In this document: one piece after another, positions 10,517 to 51,055 of the stretch | How positions within the stretch are numbered: position 1 is the stretch's first letter | Layout: every line of letters starts with the position of its first letter | Assembly (NCBI GenBank): GCA_021774385.1 | Contig: JAJFJC010000025.1 | Coordinates: forward strand, 1-53,590 | From: Alphaproteobacteria bacterium | GTDB lineage: Bacteria; Pseudomonadota; Alphaproteobacteria; UBA8366; GCA-2717185 | Length of the DNA: 53,590 nucleotides | Reading direction: 5' to 3' | Program-made: the position numbers and the translations under genes | The notes under the pieces: model-generated | The model's database searches: none | What the model was told of the DNA's origin: nothing | What the model saw: only the letters and a program-made list of their open reading frames with translations

Positions 10517-10629
10517 TACGGATATCCTCTCCGCCCCCTGTTGGCGCGCCTTTCACGTACCGAATTTACCCATCGGCATCGTGGCGCTTCCATTGTAACC
10601 CGGCCTTACCCCTAAAGCCGTTACGAGGC

Positions 10630-14478: not shown

Positions 14479-15420
14479 TTAACACTGCCTCAAATTCTCT
14501 TTATCCGGGCCGGCACAGGGCAACAGCCCGCCAACCGCTCCCGAAAGATCCCCCGCTCCAATTGCATCCATCATTTCGCGTGCGTTGGCATCGCTTGGTG
14601 ATGCAATCAACGCCGAGGCCTGAGGCACGGACTTCAGCGCAGCTTTAGCATCCTCGGCTCGCTTCATTTGCGCTGCCTTGTATTGTTGGTCGGCTCCCGC
14701 CGAGGCGGACGCATCTGTAGCGGAAACAAGCTTCGCGGCCTGACCGGCGACAAATAACCTGGCTAATTGCGCAGCCGAACGTTTTTGCAGCCAGTGGCTC
14801 ATTTTGCCCTGGGAAAACAGGACGATTTCAAAGGACTGATTTATTGGATGCCCCGCTCCCAGCATCGTAGCGAAAGCCTCGCCGCTGATTTCCGGACGGG
14901 CCAGGCCATGACACTTCATGCAATTGACCGCCAGATCGTAGGGCATCGAGGCCCAGGCCAACCCGGCATGCTTGGAATCGGCAATCCGCTTGGATTTGTG
15001 ATCCGCCGTCTCCGCTTCCCGCTTGACGTTCTTGCCGCCATAATCGAAGTGGATGGGCTCCCAGTTGGACGAGGCGCCGTGGCAGCTTTCGCAGGAGGGG
15101 CCGGTCTTGATTTTAGGCTTGGCTTCCGCTGATTTCCGTTCACTCGAATAATGGCAGACGACGCAGTCCTTGTTGCGCTTCATGTTCTTCTTGCCGCCCA
15201 CGGCAACAGCAATCTTCTTCGCGTCCTTCGCCTTGTGCACGTTGCGGTACGAGGAGAAATGCTTGGTTCCTTCCCAAACCTTATATTCATCCCTGTGGCA
15301 ATCCTGGCAGGTTTTCAAGCCTTGTGAAAAGGGTTTGGCGATCGCCGACGGCGTCCATGCGAACGCCGCGAACAATATCGCCAATAACGCCGTCAAACGT
15401 CCGATGGATGAAACCGACAT
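14479..15420 (-). CDS. Tetraheme c-type cytochrome, secreted/periplasmic
   Basis: Signal peptide ending AWTPSAIA. Four CxxCH motifs (CQDCH, CVVCH, CESCH, CMKCH). Ala/Gln-rich C-terminal third ending in two Cys. SD GGGGGAG lies before the ATG. Confidence 0.85.
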   Translation of the reverse strand: MSVSSIGRLTALLAILFAAFAWTPSAIAKPFSQGLKTCQDCHRDEYKVWEGTKHFSSYRNVHKAKDAKKIAVAVGGKKNMKRNKDCVVCHYSSERKSAEAKPKIKTGPSCESCHGASSNWEPIHFDYGGKNVKREAETADHKSKRIADSKHAGLAWASMPYDLAVNCMKCHGLARPEISGEAFATMLGAGHPINQSFEIVLFSQGKMSHWLQKRSAAQLARLFVAGQAAKLVSATDASASAGADQQYKAAQMKRAEDAKAALKSVPQASALIASPSDANAREMMDAIGAGDLSGAVGGLLPCAGPDKENLRQC

Positions 15421-15540
15421 GACTCCCCCTAGACCAATTAATTAAAAAAACGGCTTGCAGATAGCGCGCCCTATAGATCGTCAATGACTTTTGACCAGCC
15501 GCGAAATACCGGTCTGTCGAGACCGCTGACAAAGCGGCCC

Positions 15541-16947
15541 CTAGAAGGCGATGTTTATTTTCGTCCGAATTCCATATCCGTTATCGATGGAATCTTGCAT
15601 CACGGCAAATCCGCCGACTTCAAAAAATGTATGCTGATTGAGTTTCTGTGAATAACGCACCGCAGCGCCGAAACGGTCGATCCCGCCCGGCGAATTATCA
15701 TCCTTGCCGCCAATTTCGAAGACCAGGTTTCTGTCGAGGGAGGGCCATATCAACTGGTAGCCAATCGCGCCGCCATAGGTATCGTTGGCTCTATTGCTGA
15801 TTGCCGCGCCGGCCAAACCGTTTCCGGAGAACAATAAACCAGTAAGACTCAGCGGCCCGCCCCTTTCGCGCGAAGCGGGTGCATAGGCCCCCTCGGCCGC
15901 GAATAAATTCACATACATGATATCGTCGGTCCGTTTCGGCGCCCAGGAAAAGCTTGTGTAAAGCAAGGTGCCGTCCGTGGCCTGTGCGGTTTCTTGGTCC
16001 GGCGTAAAGGACGATGCGAGATGGACCTTTGTATCGACGGCGCGTTCGAAGAAGACAAAGCCATGCGTAAAACTGGCCCCGATATTAAATTGATCGCCGA
16101 TGACATCGCTGCTGTCGACATAAATCATATCAAGATCGACCGTTGAGTGCGCGATATCGGCAGACGTGAAAATGCCATACAATTCGCCATCAGGATCGTC
16201 AATATTGTTACTTCGTTGAACGTTGTTCACACCCACAAAACCGCCAATGCGCGCGAAATTGGAGCCTGGAAACGGAATCGTGCTTCTCGTAACAGCGATC
16301 GAATCCATTGTGTCGTTAATCAATATGCCGTCTTGAATGATGGCACGTTGTCGGCCAAAGGAAAATTCGTAGTCGAGCGGTAACCGACCGAGCCAATCGA
16401 TTTTTGGAAATATTTCCGACAGCTCACCCTCAAAAAATGCAGTGGTTAAGCGAAGGTTCGTTTCGTTTTCAAACCCGGATTCCGGTTGAAACGAATATCG
16501 GGTTCGTGGTCCGCCTTCGCGCTCCAAAGGGGAAATGCCCACCAAAATTCGCTCCGTACCGCTGAGTGTTAGATTCAGGAACAAGTCCAGTCTGGTCACA
16601 AAATCGATTGAGGTATCGGCAACCCCGTTGTCCGTAACTTCCAATCCTGTATTGATAAATCCGTACAACAACAGGCCGGGCGATATGATCATACCCGTGG
16701 GCAATTCGAATTCGCAGCAGTACTCCCCTTCGTTTACGTAGTCCTGAAACAATTCGAAAATTGGCTTCGGACGCGGTGGAAAGTCCTTCTGTTCCTTGAG
16801 CCCAGGCACCTTGTCTGAGTAGCGTGACGGACTTTCGGCGGCGGGCTTGGCGCTGGACTTTTTATCATCGGCAAAAACATCATTCGAAAATCCGATACCG
16901 AAACCGATAAGAGTGAAAACGCCAGTGATGATGATTTTTTTCAACAT
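15541..16947 (-). CDS. Outer-membrane beta-barrel protein (porin-like), family unassigned
   Basis: Signal peptide MLKKIIITGVFTLIGFGIGFSNDVFA. No heme motifs. Alternating hydrophobic strands with Gly/Asn/Asp turns. C-terminal KINIAF (terminal Phe). FGRQRAIIQDG resembles alginate-export-type barrels. The track start at 16968 is possible, but ATG at 16947 gives a canonical signal peptide. Confidence 0.7.
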   Translation of the reverse strand: MLKKIIITGVFTLIGFGIGFSNDVFADDKKSSAKPAAESPSRYSDKVPGLKEQKDFPPRPKPIFELFQDYVNEGEYCCEFELPTGMIISPGLLLYGFINTGLEVTDNGVADTSIDFVTRLDLFLNLTLSGTERILVGISPLEREGGPRTRYSFQPESGFENETNLRLTTAFFEGELSEIFPKIDWLGRLPLDYEFSFGRQRAIIQDGILINDTMDSIAVTRSTIPFPGSNFARIGGFVGVNNVQRSNNIDDPDGELYGIFTSADIAHSTVDLDMIYVDSSDVIGDQFNIGASFTHGFVFFERAVDTKVHLASSFTPDQETAQATDGTLLYTSFSWAPKRTDDIMYVNLFAAEGAYAPASRERGGPLSLTGLLFSGNGLAGAAISNRANDTYGGAIGYQLIWPSLDRNLVFEIGGKDDNSPGGIDRFGAAVRYSQKLNQHTFFEVGGFAVMQDSIDNGYGIRTKINIAF

Positions 16948-16957
16948 GTTAGGCACT

Positions 16958-18745
16958 CTACTTTCCAATTTTCACCGTCTCGGTTTTTTCCCACAGGTTC
17001 ATGCTTAGGTCGACCACCCGCTTCGCCAACTCGCGCAAGGAGAAGTTATAGTCGAGCCCAACACCGGAAATGACGTGGACAAAAAATGCCGGCATCGGTT
17101 GGGCAATCAGCTTCATATTCACCGTGTAGGTTTCGCCCGGCTTCAACAGATCGGAATCGACGGAGTAACTTGCCCAACGGTGACCGCCAGGCTCAATGCT
17201 GTTCTTCAACGTGCGGGCGCTTTGCGGGCGCATAAGGATGGCGGTCGAATTCGTGGGGGGACGGATAAACGGCCGGACCGCGGCCGAGAACGGAACAAAC
17301 CGCAATTGCGTGCGCTCGCCACCCCAAAATGTTCGGGTCATGAAATGGCTTTCCAGATTGAACAGTTGTTTGTCGAATTCCACTTCGCCATTGCGCACGT
17401 AACGGGAGTAGCGCTCTCGCAGGTCGCCGTTCGGATCGCGGTCGCCGGATTTGAAAACGACCTCACCCTGGCTGTCCTTGACCGTGACCTGGAAAAACAC
17501 CATCCGTTCATGGATGAAGCCCGATGGCGCGTTATGACCGAGCACGGCATTTCTCAGTTTGATCTTGAAGTTGAGACCGCTGCTCATATTGGCATCGTCG
17601 ATGACGACCTCATCCACCTTATACCCAGCCTTCATTAACGCATCGCGCTGACCCTTGGCCCAGCCCAACAGTTCGAACTGCTCGTCGAGAATTTCCCGGG
17701 CTTCGTAGCGCAAATTCTGATCCTGCCAGAATTTCGGGAACTTATAATCGTCGGCGACGTCGTCCTCGAATTTGTCCGTACCCCAACCCTTTTTGTGGTC
17801 GAACTCTAGCCATTGCTCGTAGGTCGCGATCTGCACCGCATCTGGATTATGTGGAAAGATACCGGGATGCAGAACCGAGAAATCCGGCCCGGCAAAATAG
17901 TGATTCGACAGCCGCCGATGCTTGGTCTCGGTCTTGCCGATCACCGCGCCGGGCCCCTTGGAGAATCCCTTATTCTCACCCGGTACCTTGCCCATGTGGC
18001 AATCTTGGCATGTTACGCCGTCGCGGGCCGATTGCGAGGTGCGGTATTCGTCGAAGGTTTCCTCATTGTGCAAGCCGGTCGGCAACCTCGATGAATGGCA
18101 ATTGCTACAGAAGGTCGAGGCCCTGAGAAACGAATAGGGTTCGACCTTGCCATGGATCTTCCGGCCTTTCTTGCCGGGTTTGGTGACCAGAGACAGCGAG
18201 GCGTCTTTTTCGGCCTCGGCCTGGATTTTGTTGTTGGTCGGTCCAAAGATCGGCGCAAAGATATCCCCTTTTGTGATCTTCGCCCGCGCGCTGCGTTTGC
18301 CATAGCGTTCGGCGAATCGGTGACAAACGACGCAGGTAATCCCTTCGATCACCGGACCCAGGAAGTCCTCGCCCGCTCGCGCGAATTGCGCTCTCTTCAT
18401 GTTGGAAATCTGCATAACCTTCAATACCGCCGCCAACGGTGCGTGACACCGCGAACAAGTGTCGGCCGAGGTGCTGTTGACTTTGGACAGGAGCGCAAGC
18501 TCCGTCGAGACGAAGAAGGGGCTCAGATTGGCATAGGCATGCTGCGAGGCGGACCACTGACGAAACTGAATCTCATGACAGGATTTGCATTCGAAAGCGG
18601 AGGGGAACTGCTTGTTTCGAAAAAGCTCCTCGTGCGCTTTGTCTTCGTCGACTTTGCCACCGGCCTTTTGTGCCAACGCCGATCCCGTGATCGCCATGGC
18701 CAACGACAGGATAATTGCAAACAGTACCCTCGATTGCGAAAACAT
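16958..18745 (-). CDS. Pentaheme c-type cytochrome with a large heme-free C-terminal domain, secreted/periplasmic
   Basis: Signal peptide ending GSALA. Five CxxCH motifs (CKSCH, CSRCH, CVVCH, CSNCH, CQDCH) within the first 260 aa or so, followed by about 330 aa without Cys-heme motifs. SD AAGGGGG lies 5 nt before the ATG. Confidence 0.85.
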   Translation of the reverse strand: MFSQSRVLFAIILSLAMAITGSALAQKAGGKVDEDKAHEELFRNKQFPSAFECKSCHEIQFRQWSASQHAYANLSPFFVSTELALLSKVNSTSADTCSRCHAPLAAVLKVMQISNMKRAQFARAGEDFLGPVIEGITCVVCHRFAERYGKRSARAKITKGDIFAPIFGPTNNKIQAEAEKDASLSLVTKPGKKGRKIHGKVEPYSFLRASTFCSNCHSSRLPTGLHNEETFDEYRTSQSARDGVTCQDCHMGKVPGENKGFSKGPGAVIGKTETKHRRLSNHYFAGPDFSVLHPGIFPHNPDAVQIATYEQWLEFDHKKGWGTDKFEDDVADDYKFPKFWQDQNLRYEAREILDEQFELLGWAKGQRDALMKAGYKVDEVVIDDANMSSGLNFKIKLRNAVLGHNAPSGFIHERMVFFQVTVKDSQGEVVFKSGDRDPNGDLRERYSRYVRNGEVEFDKQLFNLESHFMTRTFWGGERTQLRFVPFSAAVRPFIRPPTNSTAILMRPQSARTLKNSIEPGGHRWASYSVDSDLLKPGETYTVNMKLIAQPMPAFFVHVISGVGLDYNFSLRELAKRVVDLSMNLWEKTETVKIGK

Positions 18746-25523: not shown

Positions 25524-27119
25524 ATGACAAGGCGTCTTTCTGTCCCCGAGGTAACGTCGATTCTCGCCGATGGTGGCGAAATTGCTTTCATCGACGTGCG
25601 CGAGATCGTCCCGTTCGGGACCGGTCATCCACTACTCGCGGCCAATGTGCCGTTGTCTCGCATGGAATTGGATTTTGGAAGGCTTGTTCCCAGACTAGAT
25701 ACGCGAATTGTGTTTACCGATGGCGGCGATGGCCTATCCGAACTCGCGGCGGCTCGAATTGAAGCGCGGCGTTATACAAATGTGTCGGTATTGGACGGTG
25801 GCGCACCGGCTTGGACAGCTGCCGGCGAAGCCTTATTCCCCGAAATCGAAGTTCCCGCGAAAGGGTTCGGCGCATTCGCGAGAATCAACGGAAAACCGAA
25901 TTTCATCTCTCCCCCGGACCTCGATCGCGCCCTAAAGTCCGACGAAGATTGGGTCGTCCTCGATAGCCGGCCAAGCCGGGAATATGGTTGGGGCAACATC
26001 CCCGGCAGCACCAACGTACCGGGCGCCGATCTTGTCCGATGGTTCGATGATTTGGTACCCAATCCAAACACCAAGGTCGTCGTTAATTGCATGAGCGGAA
26101 CCCGAGGTATCCTGGGCGGTCTGAGCTTGGTTGCCGCTGGCGTTCCCAACGAAGTCCGTGTCTTGTTCCACGGCACCCGCGGCTGGCTCCTGGATGGGTT
26201 GGCGCTTGAGAAAGGTGCGAACCGCAAGGCGGGGCCGGTCTCGGCTGAGTCCCGCGCGGCAGGTGTCGCCCGTGCCGCCCGGATCGCGGAAAATGCCAAC
26301 ATCCAGCGAATCGATACGAACACGCTCGAAGGCTGGCTTGGCGAGCCCGACCGCACGACGTATCTCTTCGATGTCCGGAGCCGGCAAGAATTCGAAGCGG
26401 GCCATATACCGGGATCATGCTGCACGCCGGAAGGCACGCTGCCGATGAGCCCCGAGCGTTATTTCGCGACCTCGAACGCGCGCTATGTCCTGATCGACGA
26501 CGATACCGTGCGCGCAACGGTAACGGCATTATGGCTCAGGCAAATGGGATGGGGCGACGTTGTCGTCCTTCTGGACGGACTAGAGGGAACGCCCCTTGAA
26601 ACAGGACCTGAGCCTGCACCAGAAATCGAACCTTCCATAAACCAGTCACCGGAAATTAACCCAAAGAACCTTGAAGCACTTTGCAAGGCGGGATCGGTCC
26701 GGATCATCGATACCGGCACGTCGGACGCCTACGAAGCAGGGCATATTTGCGGTGCGATCTGGTGCTCGCGTGTCGCACTATCTGAATTTTTGGCTTCAGA
26801 ACCACACGATGGCGCGACGGTCTTGACCAGTGAAGAGGGGATAGTCGCCAGTCTCGCGGCGGGAGATTTACCGCCAGCGGTTCAAGAAACATTGTCCGTG
26901 CTAAAGGGCGGGAATACCGCGTGGCGCGGTGCAGGGCACGAACTCGTAACCGGAGCCGAAGATTTGGCATCGGCACGAGACGACCACTGGCTGGCGTCCT
27001 CGGAACGGCCTGGCGATGTCCGCCAAAACGTTGTCGATTATCTGGAATGGGAAATTACACTATTGGACGATATCGCGCGCGGCGGACCGGTTCCCTATCA
27101 AAACCTGATTTGGAACTAA
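25524..27119 (+). CDS. Multi-rhodanese-domain sulfurtransferase-like protein
   Basis: Four tandem rhodanese-like modules of about 120-130 aa. Only one carries an active-site loop (VVNCMSGTRG). Confidence 0.75.
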   Translation: MTRRLSVPEVTSILADGGEIAFIDVREIVPFGTGHPLLAANVPLSRMELDFGRLVPRLDTRIVFTDGGDGLSELAAARIEARRYTNVSVLDGGAPAWTAAGEALFPEIEVPAKGFGAFARINGKPNFISPPDLDRALKSDEDWVVLDSRPSREYGWGNIPGSTNVPGADLVRWFDDLVPNPNTKVVVNCMSGTRGILGGLSLVAAGVPNEVRVLFHGTRGWLLDGLALEKGANRKAGPVSAESRAAGVARAARIAENANIQRIDTNTLEGWLGEPDRTTYLFDVRSRQEFEAGHIPGSCCTPEGTLPMSPERYFATSNARYVLIDDDTVRATVTALWLRQMGWGDVVVLLDGLEGTPLETGPEPAPEIEPSINQSPEINPKNLEALCKAGSVRIIDTGTSDAYEAGHICGAIWCSRVALSEFLASEPHDGATVLTSEEGIVASLAAGDLPPAVQETLSVLKGGNTAWRGAGHELVTGAEDLASARDDHWLASSERPGDVRQNVVDYLEWEITLLDDIARGGPVPYQNLIWN

Positions 27120-27125
27120 GTCCGC

Positions 27126-28115
27126 TCAGGTTAAATAGGCAAGACAGCCCGCGCTTTCCAGGATCGGGTCCAGCGGCGCCTTATCCGAAACAGCCGCATA
27201 GCGTTCCCGCAAAACCTTCAATGAGCGGGCGTGGTATTTTTGCGGCGGCTGAACATAGGCCTCGCCATCGAGGTTGACGGAGAAACTTTCAGCTCCCGCC
27301 GCCAATGCCGTGGCATTCGCCGTCGACCAGGGCAGGAAATAATCACCGATATTTTGCAGCAATGGCGCGAGTGTTGGACGCAGTTCGTCCCAGCTTTCAA
27401 AGGGGCCGTCATTGCGAGGTTCCGTCATCCGGTAGGCCCAGGCCAAAACATTCGGTGTCCGAGACCGGATGATAGCCCCGGCGGTCGGATCGAGGGCCAT
27501 TTCATAGACTTGGAGTCCCAATCCGAAATCGGCGAATGCCGGCCGGGCGCCGAACAGATATTTCCGAGTTTCAAGATGCGGCGCAAGAATTTCCAATAGC
27601 CGGTCGAGATAACCGGAAATCAACGGGGCGGTTGCATCGCTCGACCCGACGAAATGGCCACGCCCGGTCATGCGTTCGCGGATTTTCTCCGCCATTCGGT
27701 CGACCTTATCGCTGTCGCCATAGGGGTCAGCGCCACGCGCCAGGACCAGCGCAGTCGCGAGTTGGTCGGGCTTGGTGTACCAGCGGTGATGGAACATCAG
27801 CTTGTTGCCCCACTCGTCGCCGAATTCCTCGATCAGCGCCGACAGGAAAGCCAATGCGGGATCTTCTGGATGAATTGACGGTTCGGGAAACACCGCGTCG
27901 AGTTTCTCCATGATCGGTGTCGAGTCTTGTATTCCCGTCCCGTCCGGCGTCACGACCAAAGGGATAATTGGGAGACGCGCGAATTTTTGGAATTCTTCCT
28001 CATGTTGGCGGCGCGACAACCACTCATGCGGAATGCCCTTGTAGCGAAAATAGGCCCGGATCTTGACCGAGTAAGGCGACATCTCCGCCCCGAAAATCCT
28101 GTATTTTTCAACCAT
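27126..28115 (-). CDS. Glutathione S-transferase-family protein (long form)
   Basis: N-terminal thioredoxin-like fold with SPYS in the CPYC position, and a helical C-terminal domain. Confidence 0.7.
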   Translation of the reverse strand: MVEKYRIFGAEMSPYSVKIRAYFRYKGIPHEWLSRRQHEEEFQKFARLPIIPLVVTPDGTGIQDSTPIMEKLDAVFPEPSIHPEDPALAFLSALIEEFGDEWGNKLMFHHRWYTKPDQLATALVLARGADPYGDSDKVDRMAEKIRERMTGRGHFVGSSDATAPLISGYLDRLLEILAPHLETRKYLFGARPAFADFGLGLQVYEMALDPTAGAIIRSRTPNVLAWAYRMTEPRNDGPFESWDELRPTLAPLLQNIGDYFLPWSTANATALAAGAESFSVNLDGEAYVQPPQKYHARSLKVLRERYAAVSDKAPLDPILESAGCLAYLT

Positions 28116-28132
28116 CCCTTTGCACCCCTTTT

Positions 28133-28798
28133 TTAGATCGAGGATTGAGACCGCGCCTGCGATTGAATGAATTGCTCCTTGCCAATATTAGCTGCGCGCT
28201 GCACGGCCGGACGGCCACCGACCCGTTTGAACCAGGCGCGCAAGTTCGGAAATTCCGTTAGATCGATGCCATAGGCTTTATACCCCCGAATCCACGGCCA
28301 GGACGCCATATCCGCGATAGAGTAATCGCCGCCCAGGAAGTCACGGTCGGCGAGCCGGCCTTCCATTACGCCGTACAGCCGAATGACTTCATTCGTGTAA
28401 CGCGCGACCGCGTAGTCAATTTTATCTTTCTTATAATTCCGGAAGTGCGCCGCCTGTCCCGCCATCGGGCCAAGGCCGCCGACTTGCCAGAACAGCCATT
28501 CCTCGACCGCGCTGCGCGCCCGCTGTTCCGCCGGATAGAACTTTCCCGTTTTGTTGCCGAGATATTGCAGAACCGCGCCGGATTCAAAAATAGAGATCGG
28601 TTCGCCACCAGGTCCTTCATGATCGACAATCGCGGGCATCCTGCCATTCGGTGAAATCTTCAGGAACGATTCCGAAAACTGCTCCTTCTCGCGCAAATTG
28701 ACGTATTTGATGTCGTAGGGAAGATCACACTCTTCCAACATGAGGGTAATTTTCCAGCCATTCGGCGTCGGCCAGAAGTAAAGATCGATTGGCGCCAT
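28133..28798 (-). CDS. yfcG: Nu-class glutathione S-transferase (YfcG-like disulfide reductase)
   Basis: IDLYFWPTPNGWKITLMLEE ... ISPNGRMPAIVDH ... ESGAVLQYL ... WLFWQVGGLGPM closely parallels E. coli YfcG as I recall it. Confidence 0.75.
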   Translation of the reverse strand: MAPIDLYFWPTPNGWKITLMLEECDLPYDIKYVNLREKEQFSESFLKISPNGRMPAIVDHEGPGGEPISIFESGAVLQYLGNKTGKFYPAEQRARSAVEEWLFWQVGGLGPMAGQAAHFRNYKKDKIDYAVARYTNEVIRLYGVMEGRLADRDFLGGDYSIADMASWPWIRGYKAYGIDLTEFPNLRAWFKRVGGRPAVQRAANIGKEQFIQSQARSQSSI

Positions 28799-38333: not shown

Positions 38334-39566
38334 TTATGGACGGTTCAGCGCCGGTAGTTGCCGTGAGAATGAGCGACGGCCGCGTTTGAACCCAAAGATC
38401 GGCAGCGCCGCCGTCGCGACCGCTTCCGCAGTTGATTGAACATCCCATACCGCCAAGTCGGCGGGGTTTCCAATCGCGACCCCGTAGTCATCGCGCCGCA
38501 ACAAACGCGCCGAACGATGCGTTACCATCTCGAAACATTCCGTGAGTTCCTCCATCGCGCCGCGCTGCACCGTGTTGGCGTAAAGATTGGCAATCCGCAT
38601 CAGTGACCCGTCGCCAAACGGCGTGAAGGGATTGAGAATATTATTCGACGACAGCGAGCAATTTACGCCGCAGGAAACCAGCGCGTTCGCATCGGCGACG
38701 CCACGCACCACGCTGTGTTCCCGCTCGCGCCCCATCACGAACAAATCCGTGGCCGGCAGTACCGTCACCGCAACGCCGCTATCCGCGAGGCGTTTTCCGA
38801 GGTCACGCAATTCGTTGGCGGGAAGCAACGAATATTTCGCGCCATGCCCGACGGCGACGCGGCCACCCCAACCGAATTTCTCCGTCAGATCGCAGACCTG
38901 ATAGATGTCCATATCCTCGGCCGTTGGGCCGACATCGAGATGAATATCAACATCGACATCGAACTCCCGCGCCAACTCGAAGATGCGATCAATCTGTCCC
39001 GCGTGGTCAGGGTCGTAACCCGGCGCGCCACCGACCACCTTGGCGCCCTGCTTCAGCGCCTCGACAATATTGACGTCAACCTCGGGTACGTCGGTCCAAC
39101 CCTCTTGCGCGAAGACGCAGAGTTCAAGATCGACCGCCCAACGATAATCTTTCGCCAGTTGTTGCAACGCCTCGAAGCTGCGCAACCCAACATTCGGATC
39201 GAGTTCCACATGGGTCCGCACATGAGTCGTTCCGTGCAGCAGGCAGCCTTCCAGCGTCGCCTTCGCCCGTTCATAAACATCTTCGACGGTGAACTCCGAT
39301 TTGACGGCGGCAACCCGCGCCATGTGATCGCGTCCGCGATTGGGCGACGGCGAACAGCGGTCGAGGATGCGTGACTTGTCGAGATGGATATGAGTTTCGA
39401 TCAGACCCGGCGAGACCAGGGCGCCATCAAGATCGAGCGTCTCGCCCTCCGCCGCCAAATCCGGCTCAATTGCCACGATTTTGCCGTTTTGAACGCCAAC
39501 ATCCCGGAGCGGTTCAGTTTCCGCGCCGGCAATTCGAACGTTCCGTAAAATCAGATCCAGGGCCAT
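38334..39566 (-). CDS. Amidohydrolase-superfamily deaminase/hydrolase (cytosine-deaminase-like)
   Basis: GLIETHIHLDKS (HxH metal motif), followed by conserved His and Asp positions downstream. Confidence 0.75.
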   Translation of the reverse strand: MALDLILRNVRIAGAETEPLRDVGVQNGKIVAIEPDLAAEGETLDLDGALVSPGLIETHIHLDKSRILDRCSPSPNRGRDHMARVAAVKSEFTVEDVYERAKATLEGCLLHGTTHVRTHVELDPNVGLRSFEALQQLAKDYRWAVDLELCVFAQEGWTDVPEVDVNIVEALKQGAKVVGGAPGYDPDHAGQIDRIFELAREFDVDVDIHLDVGPTAEDMDIYQVCDLTEKFGWGGRVAVGHGAKYSLLPANELRDLGKRLADSGVAVTVLPATDLFVMGREREHSVVRGVADANALVSCGVNCSLSSNNILNPFTPFGDGSLMRIANLYANTVQRGAMEELTECFEMVTHRSARLLRRDDYGVAIGNPADLAVWDVQSTAEAVATAALPIFGFKRGRRSFSRQLPALNRP

Positions 39567-39592: not shown

Positions 39593-40786
39593 CTAAAACA
39601 GGCCCTCTTTGCGCAATGACTCGATTTCCGCCACCTCGAACCCCGCTTCCCGCAATATTTCATCGGTATGTTCACCGACAATGGCGGGCCCGCGCTCGAC
39701 GCTGCCACCGCCATGGGCCAGCTTGAAGCCGGAACCGACAATTGTCATCGGTCCGTTTGGCCCCTCGGTTTTCTGCAGCACATCGCGGTGTTCCAACTGC
39801 GGATGCTGCACCGCACCTGCGATCGAATTGATCCGCCCGGCCGGCGCATCCGCCGCGGCCAACCGCGCTTCCCAGGTTTCCGCATCAGCTTCGGCAAAGG
39901 CGGTTTCGATGATCTCGCGCAATGCGGCCTCGTTTTCCGAACGCGCCGGCCAGTCTGCGAAACGCGGATCGTCGAGTAGCGCCGGCCGGCCGATCGCCTT
40001 ACACAGATTGGCGAACTGGCCCTCGCTGTTGACCGCCAGCAGGATATGCCCGTCCTTAACCTTGAACAGGTTCGCCGTCGGCTTGCGGCTAATCGCCTGA
40101 TTGCCGAATTGGCCCTGATTGTGGCCGGCAAGCGTATAGTCGCAGACACCCGGCGACAGAAATGTGAGGGTCGAATCGAGCATCGCCACGTCGATGAGTT
40201 GGCCGCGTCCCGTGTGGGTACGCTGGAACAGCGCGCTCGACACCGCGAACGCGGCAGTCATACCGCTCAGCGCATCGCAGACCGCGAAACCCGCACGCAC
40301 CGGCCCCGACGCTTCATGGCCAGTGATCGACATAATGCCCGACAGTGCCTGAATCTTGCCGTCATAGGATGGCGTATTCTTCTCCGGCCCCGATTGTCCG
40401 AACCCCGATACAGCGCAGTAGATCACGCCCGGATTGATTTCCGACAACACCTCATAGCCGATGCCCAGCCGGTCCATGACGCCGGGCCGGAAATTTTCCA
40501 TGACAACGTCGGCGTCCTTGACCAACCGCTTGACGATCTCAATAGCCTTTGGGTGTTTCAGATCGAGCGCGATATTGCGCTTGTTGGCGTTCACCGCGAT
40601 CCAGGCCGGCGACATTGTGTCGTCGGTCCAGGACGCGTTCGGCGCCGAGCGGCGCATATCCTCGCCACCCGGCCGCTCTACCTTGATGACGTCCGCGCCC
40701 AGCAGCGACAGCTGATAACTCGCGAACGGGCCCGCGAAGACCTGGGTGAAATCCAGGATACGAGTCCCGCTGAACGGTTTACTCAT
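39593..40786 (-). CDS. Family III CoA-transferase (CaiB/BaiF)
   Basis: GTRILDFTQVFAGPFASYQLSLLGADVIKVERPGGED is the canonical N-terminus. Confidence 0.85.
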   Translation of the reverse strand: MSKPFSGTRILDFTQVFAGPFASYQLSLLGADVIKVERPGGEDMRRSAPNASWTDDTMSPAWIAVNANKRNIALDLKHPKAIEIVKRLVKDADVVMENFRPGVMDRLGIGYEVLSEINPGVIYCAVSGFGQSGPEKNTPSYDGKIQALSGIMSITGHEASGPVRAGFAVCDALSGMTAAFAVSSALFQRTHTGRGQLIDVAMLDSTLTFLSPGVCDYTLAGHNQGQFGNQAISRKPTANLFKVKDGHILLAVNSEGQFANLCKAIGRPALLDDPRFADWPARSENEAALREIIETAFAEADAETWEARLAAADAPAGRINSIAGAVQHPQLEHRDVLQKTEGPNGPMTIVGSGFKLAHGGGSVERGPAIVGEHTDEILREAGFEVAEIESLRKEGLF

Positions 40787-40788
40787 AC

Positions 40789-41742
40789 CTACTCCGCGGC
40801 GCTTACTTTAAGGCCGTCCTTCTCGCGCTGTACCTTTGCGACCCGCTTTACTTCGTCAAATGCGGCGCGCCGCTTGGCGAGTTCTTCCTCCGACATCTGC
40901 TCGATATTACTGAAGTCGATTTTCCAGCGCGCATCGTCGTTCCAGCGCAACGGTGACTGAACCGTCGTCCGGGGACCAATAGCCGTTTCAAGCACCCGTA
41001 AGGCAAGATCGAGAGTGAAGACCTGCGAGCCCCGATCGTTCGGCTTGCCGGCCGAATTGCCGAGCGGGAAATCGCTGAACAGGAAGCGCGGCACGCCGCA
41101 CTGTTCGACAATGTCCTTCGCACATCCCATCACGACCGTCGGGATGCCATTTTCTTCAAGGTAGCGTGCAATCAGACTCACGGTCTGATGACACACTGGT
41201 CAATTAGCGACAATGACAGCGACGTCGGCCTCATCCTCACGGACACCGGCGAGAATATCGCGGCAATCCTGTTCGATCGTCGTAACCTGACTACGGTTCG
41301 TCGGCGCGCCATGGAAGCGCGGCGCGACAGAGCCGACCCGGCCGCTCTCGGCCGCCTTGTGAAGCTGCCCCAACGGGAAATACGTATTGATGTCTTCCGC
41401 CGTGGTGTATTTGCGGTCGTAACCAAGGTGCGAGATGCGGAGATCGTGCTCCTTATCGGTCTCGCCCGAATAGACCTTGTAGAACTTAGCCGAGGCGTTG
41501 TACGCGGCGCCCGGCCCCTGATCGCCTTTATCGTCTTGGTAGGGTGCGGCCGTCGTCACCAGCGCAACACGCGACTCCGACAAAGGTTTCTTCAAGGGTG
41601 TGAACGGTACATCGGTATATTGCGCCCATCGGTAGGGATTACCGTAGCCGAGCGCCAAATAATACGACGTGATCCGATGGATATACGGAACCGGCGTATC
41701 ATGCGGCGCGGCAAATCCCAGCGCGGCATCTTGATCTGTCAT
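40789..41742 (-). CDS. GrdB-family (glycine/sarcosine/betaine reductase component B-like) selenoprotein, 317 codons with in-frame UGA (Sec) at 41200-41202
   Basis: Track ORFs 41200-41742 and 40789-41196 are in the same frame (954 nt in total) and are separated only by TGA plus CCA. The joined sequence AVIVAN-U-PVC-HQTVSLIARYLEENGIPTVVMGC parallels the GrdB Sec region AVILTST-U-GTC-TRCGATMVKEIERAGIPVVHMC as I recall it. The motif is UxxC. Confidence 0.8.
41164..41196 (-). other. SECIS-like mRNA hairpin immediately 3' of the in-frame UGA
   Basis: mRNA: UGA CCA GUGUGU-C-AUCAGAC-CGUGA-GUCUGAU-U-GCACGC. A 7-bp perfect upper stem plus a 6-bp lower stem (two G-U pairs) with a 1x1 C/U mismatch. The apical loop contains GU at about 22-23 nt from the U of UGA. 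Confidence 0.65.
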
Positions 41743-41828
41743 AGGTGTTCCTCTTTAGGCAATTGGTCTTAAAACAACAATACAGCATGCAACGAGCCAA
41801 ACAAATCAGCCAACCAAAGTTGGCAGAG

Positions 41829-43235
41829 TTATGCTGTTTTGGGATCGATAGGCAGCAGAGACAAGCCGAGTTCCGCTTCCAGCGCCGCCGCGTGGCGCAA
41901 CAAATCCGCTTCGCCGCGCGGCTTGCCCACGAGTTGCAGCCCAACGGGCAGACCTGCCTCGGTAAAACCACACGGGAGCGATAAGGCGGGGCATCCCGTC
42001 AGCGTGATTGCATACGTCATGCTGAGCCATTCGATATAATTTGTCAGCACCTTGCCGTTGATCTCTTTCACGTAGCGTTCCCCGACCGGAAACGGCGATA
42101 CCGCAACGCAAGGTGTCACCAGTATGTCATGGGTTTCGAAGAAGGCGGCAACATCGGCACAGAGCGCCGCCCGCTGACGCTCCGCGCGTCCAATATCGGC
42201 GGCCTTTAAAGCCATCCCCTGTTCGGTATTGCCAATTACCTCGGGTTTGAGTTGATCGCGGTGCCGGTCAAGCAACTCCTCCATAACCGTCGCAAAGGAC
42301 GCCGCGCGCAGAGTCTGGAAAGACTCGTGGGCAGCGGAAAAGTCCGGACAGGTATCATCAACATCCGCGCCCAGAGCGGAGAACCGCTGGGCCGCCGATG
42401 CGCAAATCTCAACAACCTCCCTGTCCACGGGCGTAATCCCAAGGTCTGGGGAGAACCCGACGCGGATCGGTGCCGCCGGAGACAATCCAGCTTCGAGGAA
42501 AGAACCAACCGGGCGGTCAAATGTTAAGGGGTCGCGCGGATCCAAGCCGCACATCGCATCGAGAAACAGGCCGACATCGGCAACGTCTCGCGCCATCGGA
42601 CCATCGACCCAAAGCGGCGTAAAGGGCTCAAGTCCCGGCCCGTGCGGAACCCGTCCCGACGACGGGCGCAAACCAACCACATTGCAGAACGCGGCGGGAA
42701 TGCGCAGCGAGCCCCCAAGGTCGGACCCTGTCGCAAGCCACGCCATGCCCGTCGCCAACGCTACCGCCGACCCGCCGGATGATCCTCCGCAGCTTAACGC
42801 CGTGTTCCAGGGATTCACGGTTTTGCCGAAGACTTCATTGAAGGTATTCGCCCCTGCGCCCCATTCCGGCGTGTTCGACTTGCCGAGAACCACGGCCCCA
42901 TTTGCCTCAAGCAACTCAACGAGGAAGTTCGATCGTTCTGGAATATGGTCACTATAGATTGGCGAACCGTAGGTCGTCCGCACACCGGCGACGTCGACCA
43001 AATCCTTCACCAGGATTGGAAGGCCCTGAAGATTCCGCTCCGCGCCGCCGGTTCCGCCGATATCCTTCGCGGCATCCTTGGCCCGTTCGATACAAAGGGT
43101 CGGTACGGCATTAACAGCGATATCAACTTCCTCAATCCGCGCCACCGCGGCGTCTATTAAATCGATCGGCGTAATATCTTTCGATCGTAGCCGTTGCACG
43201 ATATTGCGGGCCGAGGAGGCAATAAGTTCATTCAT
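41829..43235 (-). CDS. Amidase-signature family amidase
   Basis: GGSSGGSAVALATG and the upstream KD...G motif. Confidence 0.85.
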   Translation of the reverse strand: MNELIASSARNIVQRLRSKDITPIDLIDAAVARIEEVDIAVNAVPTLCIERAKDAAKDIGGTGGAERNLQGLPILVKDLVDVAGVRTTYGSPIYSDHIPERSNFLVELLEANGAVVLGKSNTPEWGAGANTFNEVFGKTVNPWNTALSCGGSSGGSAVALATGMAWLATGSDLGGSLRIPAAFCNVVGLRPSSGRVPHGPGLEPFTPLWVDGPMARDVADVGLFLDAMCGLDPRDPLTFDRPVGSFLEAGLSPAAPIRVGFSPDLGITPVDREVVEICASAAQRFSALGADVDDTCPDFSAAHESFQTLRAASFATVMEELLDRHRDQLKPEVIGNTEQGMALKAADIGRAERQRAALCADVAAFFETHDILVTPCVAVSPFPVGERYVKEINGKVLTNYIEWLSMTYAITLTGCPALSLPCGFTEAGLPVGLQLVGKPRGEADLLRHAAALEAELGLSLLPIDPKTA

Positions 43236-46935: not shown

Positions 46936-47159
46936 GAAGATAAACCTAACGAAAATTAATATTCGGCATAGCATTTGGACTTAAAGGAACCTCATATCCT
47001 TTTCAAAAAACGCCTTTCACGCGCCAATTAACATTCATGTACCCAATCCGCGGACCAAAGCATCATAACCCTTGAAACCCTTGCGTCTTGGCGCAGTTGT
47101 CTTTGGGCCTGGTCGACGTAATCCGCGAAATTTCGTGGAGCATTTGGAGAACATTAGTC

Positions 47160-48539
47160 ATGGCGAATAAATTCGACGCGATCATCATTGGAACGGGCCA
47201 ATCCGGCCCCTCTCTCGCGCAACGGATGACCCAGCAAGGGCTCAAGACGGCGATTATCGAGCGCAACCTTTTCGGTGGCACATGCGTCAATGTTGGCTGC
47301 ATTCCGACCAAGGCCTTGGTCGCTAGTGCGCGCGCTGTGCATATGGCGCGGCGCGGCGCGGATTTCGGCGTCGTCATCGACGGCGCTATCAACGTAGACA
47401 TGAAACAAGTAAAGGCGCGCAAGGATGGCATCGTTCGCCAATCCAACGAAGGTGTCACCAACTGGCTCAAGAACATGGACAACCTGACCGTCTATGAAGG
47501 TCATGGCAGACTAGAGAGCGCCAATACCGTCAGCGTCAACGGTGAGCTGTTGGAGGCGGACAAGATCGTCCTCAATGTCGGTGGCCGCGCCTTGGTTCCC
47601 GAGATGCCGGGCGTGCACGACATCCCCTATCTCACGAACTCGAACATAATGGACGTGGACTTCCTGCCCGAACATCTGGTGGTCATCGGCGGCAGCTATA
47701 TTGGGCTTGAATTCGCGCAAATGTATCGCCGTTTCGGCAGCAAGGTCACCGTGATGCAGCGCGGTGCCCGCTTGGTGGCGCGCGAGGACGAAGATGTTTC
47801 CGAGGGTATTAAGGAAATCATCGAGGATTCGGGAATAGAGGTAAAACTGAATGCCGAATGCATGGCGTTCGAGAAACGCGGCAACCAGGTTGCCGTAACC
47901 TCAAATTGCCCTGACGGGCCGGAAGATACCGTCGGCAGCCATGTCCTGCTCGCCGTCGGGCGAATTCCGAACACCGGAGACCTTGGACTTGAAGCAGCTG
48001 GCGTTGAATCGGATAAGCGCGGTTTTATTACGGTTGACGACGAACTTCGCACCAACGTACCGGGCATCTGGGCAATGGGTGACGCCAATGGACGCGGCGC
48101 GTTCACGCACACGTCTTACAACGACTACGAAATTCTTGCGGCAAACATGTTCGATAACGACCCACGCCGTGTCTCCGACCGCATCACCACCTACGGCCTT
48201 TTCATCGACCCGCCGTTGGGCAGGGTTGGCATGACGGAACGCGAGGTAAGGGAATCTGGCCGCAAGGCGCTGATCGGCAAGATGATGATGACGCGGGTCG
48301 GGCGGGCCAAGGAACGCAGCGAAACGCAGGGTTTCATGAAAGTGCTGGTCGATGCGGAGACCAAGAAAATCTTGGGCGCGTCTATCCTAGGGATTGGCGG
48401 GGACGAGATCATCCATTCCCTACTCGATATCATGTATGCCGACGCCCCTTACACCGTGATTCAGAGAGCCATGCACATTCATCCCACCGTTTCGGAGCTA
48501 ATTCCGACGATGCTGGGTGATCTACGGCCCATGGAGTAG
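47160..48539 (+). CDS. Class I pyridine-nucleotide-disulfide oxidoreductase (flavoprotein disulfide reductase; MerA-core/RclA-like)
   Basis: FDAIIIGTGQSGP (FAD), GGTCVNVGCIPTK (redox CxxxxC), and a C-terminal HIHPTVSE dimer-interface motif. It has no NmerA domain and no C-terminal Cys pair. Confidence 0.8.
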   Translation: MANKFDAIIIGTGQSGPSLAQRMTQQGLKTAIIERNLFGGTCVNVGCIPTKALVASARAVHMARRGADFGVVIDGAINVDMKQVKARKDGIVRQSNEGVTNWLKNMDNLTVYEGHGRLESANTVSVNGELLEADKIVLNVGGRALVPEMPGVHDIPYLTNSNIMDVDFLPEHLVVIGGSYIGLEFAQMYRRFGSKVTVMQRGARLVAREDEDVSEGIKEIIEDSGIEVKLNAECMAFEKRGNQVAVTSNCPDGPEDTVGSHVLLAVGRIPNTGDLGLEAAGVESDKRGFITVDDELRTNVPGIWAMGDANGRGAFTHTSYNDYEILAANMFDNDPRRVSDRITTYGLFIDPPLGRVGMTEREVRESGRKALIGKMMMTRVGRAKERSETQGFMKVLVDAETKKILGASILGIGGDEIIHSLLDIMYADAPYTVIQRAMHIHPTVSELIPTMLGDLRPME

Positions 48540-48586: not shown

Positions 48587-49597
48587 TTGATTCTCGATAT
48601 AGCATTGCTCATTGTAACAATGCTTTTTGCGGGCATTCTCGGCTTTGCCGCCCATCGTTCGAGCATCTGCAATGTGAAGGCGGTCGTCGAAATTATGACG
48701 ACCCGCCGCGCCTATCTGTTCGCCAGTTTCGGCAAATCGGTACTGTGGAGCATTGTCGTCACGCTGGCGCTCTTGTTCCTCTTGCCCTCGACCGGCGCGG
48801 CGGGCGGCGGCTTATCGCTGTCGGCTCTTTCGTTGTTTGGTGGTTTTGTGTGCGGTCTCGGGATGGCGATCAACGGAAGTTGCGCCTTCGCCACCCTGAG
48901 CCGCCTTGCCGAAGGCGACGCCAGAATGCTGGTTACACTGATAACGCTGATTGCCGGTGCCGTCGGAACAACCATCGCCTTACCGTATTTCAATCCAACC
49001 CCACCAGACTCGCTACCAACCCCCTATGATCCATCGCAAGGCTGGGTCTCAATTTTACTCATTGTCCTCGGACTCTGGGCCGTGTGGGAGCTCGTCCGCT
49101 TGGCTCGAACGCGCGGCAAGGCTGGGCCCGGCGTCCTTCGTTTGTCGATAGCCGCCCTGCTGATTGGCGTCGCAAACGGATTTCTCTTCGCCTTTTCCGG
49201 CAACTGGCCCTATACCGCGACACTCATTGGCGGCGCACGGAATTTAGCAAGTGTCGGCCCCGCGCCTTCAATAGCTCTGTGGAGCCTCTTCGGGGCGTTA
49301 CTGTTCGGCATGATAGTTTCAGCAATTCAGCGTGGCAGCTTCCGTCTTCGCGCAAGACCACGCCTGTCCTGGTTGCGCAACCTATTCGGCGGCGGGCTTA
49401 TCGGTGCGGGGGTCGTGATGATTCCCGGCGGCAACGACGTGCTCCTCCTTCATGGCATACCGAACCTATCGCCCCACGCCGCACCGGCCTATGTCGCCAT
49501 GGTGCTTGGAATTGCAACCGTCCTCATTTGCCTTCACGTGAGCGGCAGGCGGTCGACTTCCGTTGATTGCGGCGGCGATATTTGCCGCACGGTCTGA
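48587..49597 (+). CDS. YeeE/YedE-family membrane protein (sulfur/selenium-compound transport family)
   Basis: About nine helices. LGFAAHRSSICNV and GGFVCGLGMAINGSCAF resemble the repeated GxxxxQRSxxC / GGC motifs of the family. TTG start. Confidence 0.55.
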   Translation: MILDIALLIVTMLFAGILGFAAHRSSICNVKAVVEIMTTRRAYLFASFGKSVLWSIVVTLALLFLLPSTGAAGGGLSLSALSLFGGFVCGLGMAINGSCAFATLSRLAEGDARMLVTLITLIAGAVGTTIALPYFNPTPPDSLPTPYDPSQGWVSILLIVLGLWAVWELVRLARTRGKAGPGVLRLSIAALLIGVANGFLFAFSGNWPYTATLIGGARNLASVGPAPSIALWSLFGALLFGMIVSAIQRGSFRLRARPRLSWLRNLFGGGLIGAGVVMIPGGNDVLLLHGIPNLSPHAAPAYVAMVLGIATVLICLHVSGRRSTSVDCGGDICRTV

Positions 49598-49687
49598 CGG
49601 AGGCTCCTTCAATCCGCAGTTCCTGATAAGTTTTTAATTAACGCTTTGTCCTTGACGCCAATAGAAATGCGCGTTACTCGTGCGCCC

Positions 49688-49745
49688 CTCGTGGTGATTT
49701 GTCCGACCGGATTGCGGCCACGTTAAATAAACCGCTAAAAGGTCT
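49688..49745 (+). promoter_or_regulatory. Candidate SAM-II (metA-element) riboswitch
   Basis: An H-type pseudoknot is possible: CGUGG (49690-94)/CCACG (49718-22) interleaved with GCGG (49714-17)/CCGC (49732-35). It has a GAUUU loop and a 3' AAACCGCUAAAAGG tail resembling the conserved AAAGCUAAAA strand. It lies in the leader of metZ, a typical SAM-II-regulated gene class. Confidence 0.4.
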
Positions 49746-49761
49746 GATTGGTTTGTTTCAA

Positions 49762-49828: not shown

Positions 49829-51055
49829 ATGACGCAAAGAGAAAGCAGCAATCCAAGCTGGCGGCCCGCAACAAACTTGGTACGGGGCGGCCTTACGCGT
49901 AGCGGGTTTTCCGAAACCAGCGAAGCACTCTACATGACGTCGGGATATGTCTACGAGTCGGCGGAAGAAGCCGAGGCGGCGTTCTCGAACGACATCGACC
50001 GCTATATCTATTCGCGCTACGCCAACCCAACATTGTCAATGCTCGAGGAGCGACTCTGCCTGTTGGAGGGCGCGGAAGCCTGCGCGACCACGGCAAGCGG
50101 CATGGCGGCCGTCTTCGCCGCGCTCGCCTGTCAGGTGGAAGCCGGCGATTATGTCGTCGCGTCACGGGCGCTGTTCGGCTCCTGCCTTTACATCATCAAC
50201 GATATTTTGCCCCGGCTCGGTGTCGAAACCCGTGTCGTGGACGGCACCGATTTGGCGGAATGGGAGGACGCCCTGAGCCGTCCCACCAAATGTGTTTTCC
50301 TGGAAACCCCAACCAATCCGACATTAGAAATTATCGATCTGGCTGCGGTGTGCGAGCTCGCCCATGCGGTCGGCGCCCGCGTCATTGTCGATAATGTTTT
50401 CTCGACCCCCATGCTACAGCGGCCGCTTCAGCTCGGTGCGGATATCGTCGTTTATTCGACCACCAAACATATCGATGGGCAGGGCCGCTCGCTTGGCGGG
50501 GCAATCCTATGCGACGCGGAGTTCCACAAGGAGTTCGTGACGCCATTCATGCGCCATACCGGACCGGCACTGAGCCCGTTCAACGCCTGGATTTGTTTGA
50601 AAGGTCTAGAAACCCTGGACCTGCGCGTCCGGCAACATTGCGAAAATGCGCGCGCCGTCGCGGAGTTTCTGGAAGGACAGCCCGGCCTCAACCGCGTCAT
50701 CTATCCGGGGCTGGCCTCACATCCTCAGCATGATTTGGCGAAAACCCAGATGAGCGGCGCCAGCAGCATGGTGAGTTTCGAGCTGCCCGGCGGCAAGGAA
50801 GCGGCGTTCCGTTTTCTGAATGCGCTGGAGATCATCGATTTGTCGAACAATCTCGGCGACGCAAAAAGCCTCATCACGCATCCGGAGACAACCACACATC
50901 AACGCCTCAGCGACGAGGAGCGCGTGCAACTCGGAATCAACGGTGGCTTAGTGCGCTTATCGGTCGGGCTCGAGGATCCACTCGATTTGCAGGACGATAT
51001 CGCCCGCGCGCTCGACTTTTCCGCGCTTAAGGCAGATCGAGCCGTACGGCGATAG
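49829..51055 (+). CDS. metZ: O-succinylhomoserine sulfhydrylase (Cys/Met-metabolism PLP enzyme)
   Basis: YIYSRYANPT, EGAEACATTASGMAAV, VVYSTTKHIDGQGRSLGG (PLP-Lys). GGAGGGG SD. Confidence 0.85.
   Translation: MTQRESSNPSWRPATNLVRGGLTRSGFSETSEALYMTSGYVYESAEEAEAAFSNDIDRYIYSRYANPTLSMLEERLCLLEGAEACATTASGMAAVFAALACQVEAGDYVVASRALFGSCLYIINDILPRLGVETRVVDGTDLAEWEDALSRPTKCVFLETPTNPTLEIIDLAAVCELAHAVGARVIVDNVFSTPMLQRPLQLGADIVVYSTTKHIDGQGRSLGGAILCDAEFHKEFVTPFMRHTGPALSPFNAWICLKGLETLDLRVRQHCENARAVAEFLEGQPGLNRVIYPGLASHPQHDLAKTQMSGASSMVSFELPGGKEAAFRFLNALEIIDLSNNLGDAKSLITHPETTTHQRLSDEERVQLGINGGLVRLSVGLEDPLDLQDDIARALDFSALKADRAVRR

Follow-up and report, generated by a model that had tools for sequence, protein, structure and literature searches.

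Analysis of a 53,590-nucleotide stretch of alphaproteobacterial DNA (contig JAJFJC010000025.1 of GenBank assembly GCA_021774385.1, positions 1 to 53,590 of the forward strand; referred to below as the window) indicates that two minus-strand open reading frames (ORFs) at positions 40789-41742 form a single gene for a PrdB-like redox protein, broken by an in-frame UGA at codon 181. Comparison of the gene with its relatives strongly supports the reading of this UGA as selenocysteine (Sec). It is highly probable that the explanation holds as a whole, namely that a single PrdB-like gene has its UGA 181 recoded to Sec through an in-frame selenocysteine insertion sequence (SECIS) and that its product is a redox protein in a coenzyme A (CoA)-linked step.

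The minus-strand frame runs from ATG 41742 to a TAG stop at 40791-40789, and its sole interruption is the TGA at 41202-41200, around which the codons read GCT AAT TGA (41202-41200) CCA (41199-41197) GTG (41196-41194) TGT CAT CAG. The ORF list gives the two parts, which have one common frame, as 41200..41742 (180 amino acids, ATG start) and 40789..41196 (135 amino acids, GTG start). When joined they yield 180 amino acids, the UGA and a further 136 amino acids, giving 317 residues in which the UGA is residue 181; the product reads ...DEADVAVIVAN-U-PVCHQTVSLIARYLEENGIPTVVMGCAKDIV... at this point (context VAVIVAN-U-PVCHQTVSL). A preliminary description of this DNA, made from its letters and a list of its ORFs, had proposed that the two ORFs were one gene broken solely by an in-frame UGA; the frame, coordinates and codons were found to match the sequence exactly and the conceptual product of 317 amino acids, with U at residue 181, was reproduced. 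Across the window 73 same-frame ORF pairs are separated by TGA, and support was found for the pair at 40789-41742 only. An ORF of 194 amino acids (41188-41772, plus strand) lies antisense to the gene and a similar antisense ORF is present in 74 of 81 related loci; it was rejected as a gene and put down, as an artefact, to the codon bias of the other strand.

The residue at the UGA column was compared in the best 120 database homologues (305-337 amino acids, 64-70% identical), an alignment which the preliminary description had suggested as a check. All 120 have Cys in this column, inside an invariant N-C-P-V-C-H-Q motif. Related genomes were also scanned with tblastn and reduced to one genome per species, giving 80 loci which are 61-94% identical to the window protein across residues ~1-317. 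Codon 181 in these 80 species genomes was TGA in 48, TGC in 26 and TGT in 6 (32 Cys forms in total), and was never a Trp codon. The second member of the redox pair, Cys184, is invariant in the 120 best homologues and in all 81 loci. The frame remains open past the TGA in every one of the 48 TGA loci, for 128-139 codons (184 in one), compared with 126-150 codons in the Cys forms, which are single polypeptides of ~310-320 amino acids. Carriers of the TGA form are mostly metagenome-assembled genomes (MAGs) of marine Alpha- and Gammaproteobacteria, together with a Rokubacteria MAG and the cultured Desertibaculum subflavum; the nearest relatives of the window are marine Rhodospirillaceae/Alphaproteobacteria MAGs. 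In a neighbour-joining tree the Sec forms occupy deep clades, with just three Sec/Cys changes.

UGA 181 would thus not terminate translation and would be recoded to Sec. The putative recoding signal is a bacterial SECIS hairpin within the coding sequence, with a 7-bp upper stem and a CGUGA loop starting 17 nt past the UGA, and this hairpin would recruit SelB bearing Sec-tRNASec, as in bacteria, both factors being presumed here. The complete structure, GUGUGU-C-AUCAGAC-CGUGA-GUCUGAU-U-GCACGC, starts 3 nt past the UGA. The bSECISearch model, as quoted in PMC13188914, requires an apical loop of 3-9 nt, an upper stem of 4-16 bp, a G within the first two loop positions, a UGA-to-loop distance of 16-37 nt and a minimum free energy of -7.5 kcal/mol or lower. 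The hairpin has a loop of 5 nt (CGUGA), an upper stem of 7 bp, a G as the second loop base with U next to it, a distance of 17 nt and a minimum free energy of -18.8 kcal/mol over 45 nt (z=-2.2 over 76 nt), and it agrees with all four published bacterial SECIS criteria; a search of this kind was another check that had been suggested beforehand.

The contrast between TGA and Cys forms provided the decisive test of the recoding signal. The five apical pairs (CAGAC/GUCUG, loop CGUGA) were intact in 49 of 49 TGA forms compared with 2 of 32 Cys forms (Fisher P=3.5e-20). In the TGA forms, codons +6 to +9 are nearly always ACC GTG AGT CTG, the rare AGT included, while they vary freely in the Cys forms, 24 of 32 of which have AGC. 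The named helix was paired to 85.9% in TGA forms and to 66.5% in Cys forms. Compensatory changes were observed in the apical hairpin, from G-C to A-U at pair 18-28 and from U-A to C-G at pair 15-31, and a third sits lower in the stem. A single copy of the 15-nt hairpin core CAGACCGTGAGTCTG is present in the window (41173-41187), against ~0.08 occurrences expected by chance even with 2 mismatches allowed. As a separate observation, the locus L009 (6541-6585, plus strand) is a Cys form (TGT) that has a complete SECIS hairpin and is placed within a Sec clade, which suggests that Sec was recently converted to Cys here and that the SECIS persists as a fossil. Among the other Cys forms the apical helix is intact in L068 alone.

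A scan with the exact 30-mer that spans the UGA and the hairpin, TGACCNGTNTGYCAYCAGACCGTGAGTCTG, listed at least 120 further species genomes (L081-L200) from many phyla. Among the matches listed, the carriers include Acidimicrobiia, Dehalococcoidia, Myxococcota, Methylomirabilota, Binatia and Spirochaetales, and the genes concerned are PrdB-like paralogues which are 31-74% identical to the window protein. The invariance of the SECIS at the nucleotide level over such breadth is striking: compared with the bacterial SECIS consensus, it is here the sequence itself, and not the shape alone, that is approximately invariant across many phyla. A second Sec paralogue was found in the MAGs which bear the orthologues L001, L002, L023, L028 and L030. 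Several genomes hold two or more 30-mer genes (example loci L137, L112, L151, L092, L152 and L131), and a single genome has both a Cys orthologue (L054) and a Sec paralogue (L131).

The joined protein was compared with curated family models. PF07355 (GRDB) was matched with 30 bits against a threshold of 22, residues 39-178 aligning with positions 208-345 of the 347-position profile, and the model ends immediately before the Sec residue. The highest score among the curated models was obtained with the PrdB model TIGR04483 (101.5 bits, residues 47-254 against profile positions 20-221 of 238), for which the curated cut-off of 300 was not reached. When scored separately on this model the two halves gave 42.6 and 40.6 bits, so that the joined score exceeds their sum, and from either half alike residue 181 is aligned with position ~148 of the PrdB profile and ~350 of the GrdF profile. 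Scores for the GrdB-type models were also under their cut-offs: 37.4 bits for GrdB TIGR01917 (cut-off 602), 44.5 for GrdF NF040794 (800), 40.0 for GrdH NF040795 (775) and 39.5 for the subfamily model TIGR01918 (65.45). Because all of the NCBIfam PrdB and GrdB scores fall below their cut-offs, the window protein is, on the basis of its sequence, assigned as a PrdB-like member of the GRDB superfamily which is neither PrdB nor GrdB proper. The preliminary description had called it a GrdB-family protein; the PF07355 match bears out the superfamily, while the closer likeness is to PrdB (101.5 bits) rather than to the GrdB-type models (37-44 bits). It had also held that both halves were needed to make one PF07355-like domain; PF07355 itself covers residues 39-178 only, and it is the NCBIfam PrdB and GrdB models that span the junction.

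Likeness to the clostridial PrdB of C. sticklandii and C. difficile consists in the best-scoring curated model and in a common UxxC motif, while the window protein differs in having an extra N-terminal extension (~46 amino acids) and a helical C-terminal extension (~60 amino acids), and its host is an alphaproteobacterium whereas the hosts of PrdB are Stickland-fermenting clostridia. With GrdB, GrdF and GrdH it shares an alignable C-terminal region of ~210 residues and Sec at the equivalent column, where clostridial PrdB and GrdB presumably both carry it. The GrdB-type alignments cover residues ~40-259, and their first profile position is 211-217 of 431-435; the window protein, at 317 residues, lacks the N-terminal ~210 residues of GrdB and with them the ~430-amino-acid GrdB architecture. 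The motif also differs, being U-P-V-C-H-Q in the window and UxxCxxC in GrdB (as quoted in PMC13188914).

Other explanations of the TGA were weighed against Sec decoding. A pseudogene or an assembly error, in which a Cys TGT or TGC has been mutated or misread as TGA, would take only one base change, would suit the Cys found at this column in all 120 of the best full-length homologues, and could be accommodated by a MAG-like contig, in which errors are possible. The TGA nevertheless recurs independently in the genomes of 48 species, in all of which the frame downstream is intact, the 30-mer is present in at least 120 more, the hairpin and the conservation of synonymous sites are specific to TGA forms, and the N-terminal half falls in a 90% cluster whose 98 members are all truncated identically. 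This explanation is considered exceedingly improbable, nonsense mutation or sequencing error being excluded because the TGA recurs independently. It is likewise very improbable that the region holds two real genes, a 180-amino-acid protein ended by the UGA and a 135-amino-acid protein started at GTG 41196, even though ORF finders report precisely that and GTG is a legal start codon. On inspection of the sequence no Shine-Dalgarno or other ribosome-binding site comparable to the AAGAGG of the upstream start was found before GTG 41196, and the matching codon is GTC, GTT or GTA, none of them a start, in 15 of 49 TGA forms. The Cys forms, moreover, are single chains of ~310-320 amino acids, the PrdB and GrdB profiles continue across the junction, and the U181/C184 redox pair would be divided between the two chains.

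A slim chance was given to read-through of the UGA as an amino acid other than Sec, by a near-cognate Trp or Cys tRNA or by lineage-wide reassignment, which would agree with the fact that no Sec machinery was seen in 53.6 kb. That fact belongs to a group of results which weigh against Sec decoding itself: ARAGORN found no tRNA gene in the 53.6-kb window, tblastn found no match to SelD there (the E. coli query being approximate), no meaningful Rfam match to the hairpin was obtained even at E<=10, and the literature searched holds no report of selenium incorporation shown experimentally for the proteobacterial PrdB-like family. Neither SelD nor tRNA-Sec was found in 200 related loci (~1.8 Mb), which is uninformative as these have short flanks only. 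Against non-Sec read-through, the column holds only Cys or UGA and never Trp, and a SelB-type hairpin is conserved where the bSECIS model demands one. In addition, Reyranella massiliensis 521 is recorded among Sec-utilising bacteria, with 10 selenoproteins (PMC5029168 Table S2), and the 30-mer was found, among the matches listed, in Reyranella genomes other than strain 521. UGA has not been reassigned, because it ends 8 of the 31 tabulated ORFs in the window as an ordinary stop, nearly all of them Pfam-supported. Decoding of UGA 181 as Sec is therefore preferred, and the earlier claim that the UGA encodes Sec at the redox-active position of a UxxC motif finds agreement in the Sec/Cys pairing, the open downstream frames and the TGA-specific SECIS hairpin.

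The position of the motif in the fold was examined in an AlphaFold model of a Cys form (P0001) which is 68% identical to the window protein (pLDDT 80, pTM 0.81). In this model C181 lies in the first turn of helix 182-197, directly after strand 174-178, and the U-P-V-C motif is predicted to sit where an alpha-helix begins, the usual geometry for a redox-active CxxC/UxxC pair. By analogy with PrdB and GrdB, the substrate would be attacked by the selenolate of Sec181; the adduct would then be resolved by Cys184 into a selenenyl-sulfide, which a dithiol system would re-reduce.

The gene lies in a minus-strand run which encodes a glutamate-synthase-like flavin mononucleotide (FMN) protein, an amidase, the PrdB-like protein, a family III CoA-transferase, an amidohydrolase, a major facilitator superfamily (MFS) exporter, a short-chain dehydrogenase/reductase (SDR) and a 3-hydroxyisobutyrate dehydrogenase (HIBADH)-like protein; this complete gene order is retained in the closest relatives only. 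Coordinates are given in Table 1. A same-strand family III CoA-transferase was found directly downstream in 36 of 46 TGA loci and 15 of 31 Cys loci (51 of 77 assessable), adjacency being counted in loci with sufficient flank. The gaps between the two genes are mostly -4 to +50 nt. The CoA-transferase forms the sole neighbour cluster present in more than one third of the 81 loci, the remaining clusters being antisense artefacts; the window's own CoA-transferase (39593..40786) reached no NCBIfam equivalog cut-off. Other neighbours (acyl-CoA dehydrogenase, enoyl-CoA hydratase, SDR and TauD-type dioxygenase) are subclade-specific. In Rokubacteria/Methylomirabilota loci the C-terminal half appeared to be fused to the CoA-transferase, which was rejected as an artefact of over-extended ORFs in another frame. 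Domains of PrdA, GrdA, GrdE, GrdC/D and PrdC were found in none of the ~47 window ORFs scanned and were not conserved in related loci; the gene thus differs from PrdB in that neither the PrdA pyruvoyl proprotein nor PrdC is present in the window or conserved among the 80 related loci, and from GrdB in that grdA, grdE, grdC and grdD were not found nearby.

Table 1. Positions of the selenoprotein gene, its elements and its neighbours in the window.
Feature	Position	Strand	Evidence and remarks
PrdB-like selenoprotein gene, complete	40789..41742	minus	317 sense codons, predicted Sec at codon 181, TAG stop
UGA codon 181, predicted to be read as Sec (U in U-P-V-C)	41200..41202	minus	Cys column of homologues
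TGT, Cys184, Cys partner in the UxxC redox pair	41191..41193	minus	Invariant in homologues
Shine-Dalgarno sequence AAGAGG	41750..41755	minus	7 nt upstream of ATG 41742; seen directly in the sequence
Putative SECIS stem-loop within the coding sequence	full helix 41197-41163	minus	Fold, TGA-specific conservation, bSECIS criteria
Apical hairpin AUCAGAC-CGUGA-GUCUGAU	41189-41171; loop 41182-41178	minus	
Family III (CaiB/BaiF-type) CoA-transferase, conserved operon partner	39593..40786	minus	PF02515, 396 bits; gap of 2 nt after the selenoprotein stop
Amidase, upstream neighbour	41829..43235	minus	PF01425, 335 bits; syntenic only in the closest relatives L001-L006
Amidohydrolase (cytosine-deaminase-like), downstream of the CoA-transferase	38334..39566	minus	PF07969/PF01979; syntenic only in L002-L006

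No PrdA, GrdA or GrdE partner is present, and the protein is therefore unlikely to reduce D-proline or glycine as the clostridial enzymes do. The lack of these partners, together with the tight coupling to the family III CoA-transferase, leads to a best guess, held with low confidence, that the protein may catalyse a reduction within a CoA-linked pathway that breaks down a small nitrogen-containing compound. Several points weigh against this functional part of the explanation, which draws only on gene order and on the analogy with PrdB and GrdB. The protein scores under every curated PrdB and GrdB cut-off, and adjacency of the CoA-transferase falls to approximately one quarter among the more distant paralogue loci (among the matches listed). 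The PDB yielded no match to the joined protein by sequence (E<=1) and none to the AlphaFold model by Foldseek (E<=0.001, TM<=0.27), so that there is no solved relative from whose structure a mechanism could be borrowed. The literature searched contained no characterised function or gene context for the proteobacterial branch.

A more specific proposal, which we regard as unlikely, is that the PrdB-like selenoprotein and the CoA-transferase translated immediately after it make up a two-component reductase of aerobic marine Alpha- and Gammaproteobacteria. The CoA-transferase would provide a thioester, by which the alpha-carbon would be activated in lieu of a pyruvoyl-bearing PrdA/GrdE subunit, and the Sec/Cys pair would then reductively break a C-N (or C-S/C-X) bond in an osmolyte-like or nitrogen-rich compound bound to CoA. 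If true, this would give a function to one of the most abundant selenoprotein families of the ocean and might explain the near-invariant UGA-SECIS 30-mer across more than 10 phyla. The conserved CoA-transferase partner provides a handle on function in cultured carriers (Desertibaculum subflavum, Enhydrobacter aerosaccus and Reyranella).

Selenoproteins of this description have been catalogued before. "Proline reductase PrdB" (UxxC, pfam07355) was the third most abundant selenoprotein family of the Sargasso Sea, with 42 Sec genes (PMC1088965; Zhang, Fomenko & Gladyshev 2005), and the "PrdB" family of the Global Ocean Sampling (GOS) survey comprised 235 Sec and 110 Cys forms (PMC2398784; Zhang & Gladyshev 2008). 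Both marine surveys catalogue the family without gene context or function outside clostridia (PMC1088965, PMC2398784), and reviews still place marine PrdB-like selenoproteins under D-proline reductase. The likeness of the window gene to this family lies in pfam07355, the UxxC Sec motif, the occurrence of Sec and Cys forms and the prevalence in the ocean, and is a match of descriptors, not of sequences; from these common descriptors the window gene appears to belong to the marine "PrdB" family. The Sec reading is in itself not new, the gene apparently being a member of a selenoprotein family known as common in marine bacteria since 2005. The preliminary description had considered such a gene unusual in a GC-rich proteobacterial cluster, a view at odds with the abundance of the family in the marine surveys (PMC1088965, PMC2398784) and with the G+C content of the window, which is only 57%.

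Its expectation that gene callers would mis-annotate the gene proved correct, as the 180-amino-acid N-terminal half is a stand-alone entry in the protein collection, in a 98-member cluster named 'D-proline reductase (dithiol) PrdB' by JGI. In the window contig and in hundreds of related MAGs the gene appears as two fragments or as a truncated 'PrdB', and these records need to be merged and given a Sec translation exception. The UGA-plus-hairpin 30-mer, which is kept in paralogues only 31-45% identical, is a handy search tag for the Sec forms of the family.

Further features were observed elsewhere in the window. A giant open frame on the minus strand (2-10552), which continues past the start of the window and comprises at least 3517 codons, has FG-GAP/VCBS-looking repeats at its end (...DGDGFDDVLVG...). 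It is adjoined by a TolC-like outer-membrane efflux gene at 10744-12096 (PF02321), which makes a giant adhesin secreted by a type I system its probable product. No family was matched by the plus-strand ORFs at 3567-10369, which are antisense artefacts of the giant frame; they include a pair split by the TGA at 9509, and this pair (7982-9511 and 9572-10369) was rejected as a second selenoprotein gene, as it is antisense to the giant minus-strand ORF.

Two multihaem c-type cytochrome genes on the minus strand (14479-15420 and 16958-18745, with c554/MtrC-like Pfam matches) have between them an ORF of 475 amino acids without a family match, and the region 14479-18745 may be an extracellular electron-transfer module. 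On the plus strand, an FAD-dependent pyridine-nucleotide disulfide oxidoreductase (47088-48539; NF004992, 787 bits; syntenic only in L001 and L003) is followed by a membrane protein of the YeeE/YedE 'sulphur transport' family (48587-49597). Both were considered as selenium markers and neither was used as evidence, the YeeE/YedE protein scoring 43.5 bits against a cut-off of 350 as YedE/FdhT and the oxidoreductase showing synteny in those two loci only. A SAM_alpha riboswitch (RF00521, 72.6 bits) at 49681-49758 (plus strand), the only Rfam match in the window, immediately precedes a gene for O-succinylhomoserine sulfhydrylase (49829-51055; TIGR01325, 575 bits) and identifies the contig as alphaproteobacterial. 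At 25524-27119 (plus strand) is a gene for a protein with four rhodanese domains, and two glutathione S-transferase (GST) genes lie just past it at 27126-28798.

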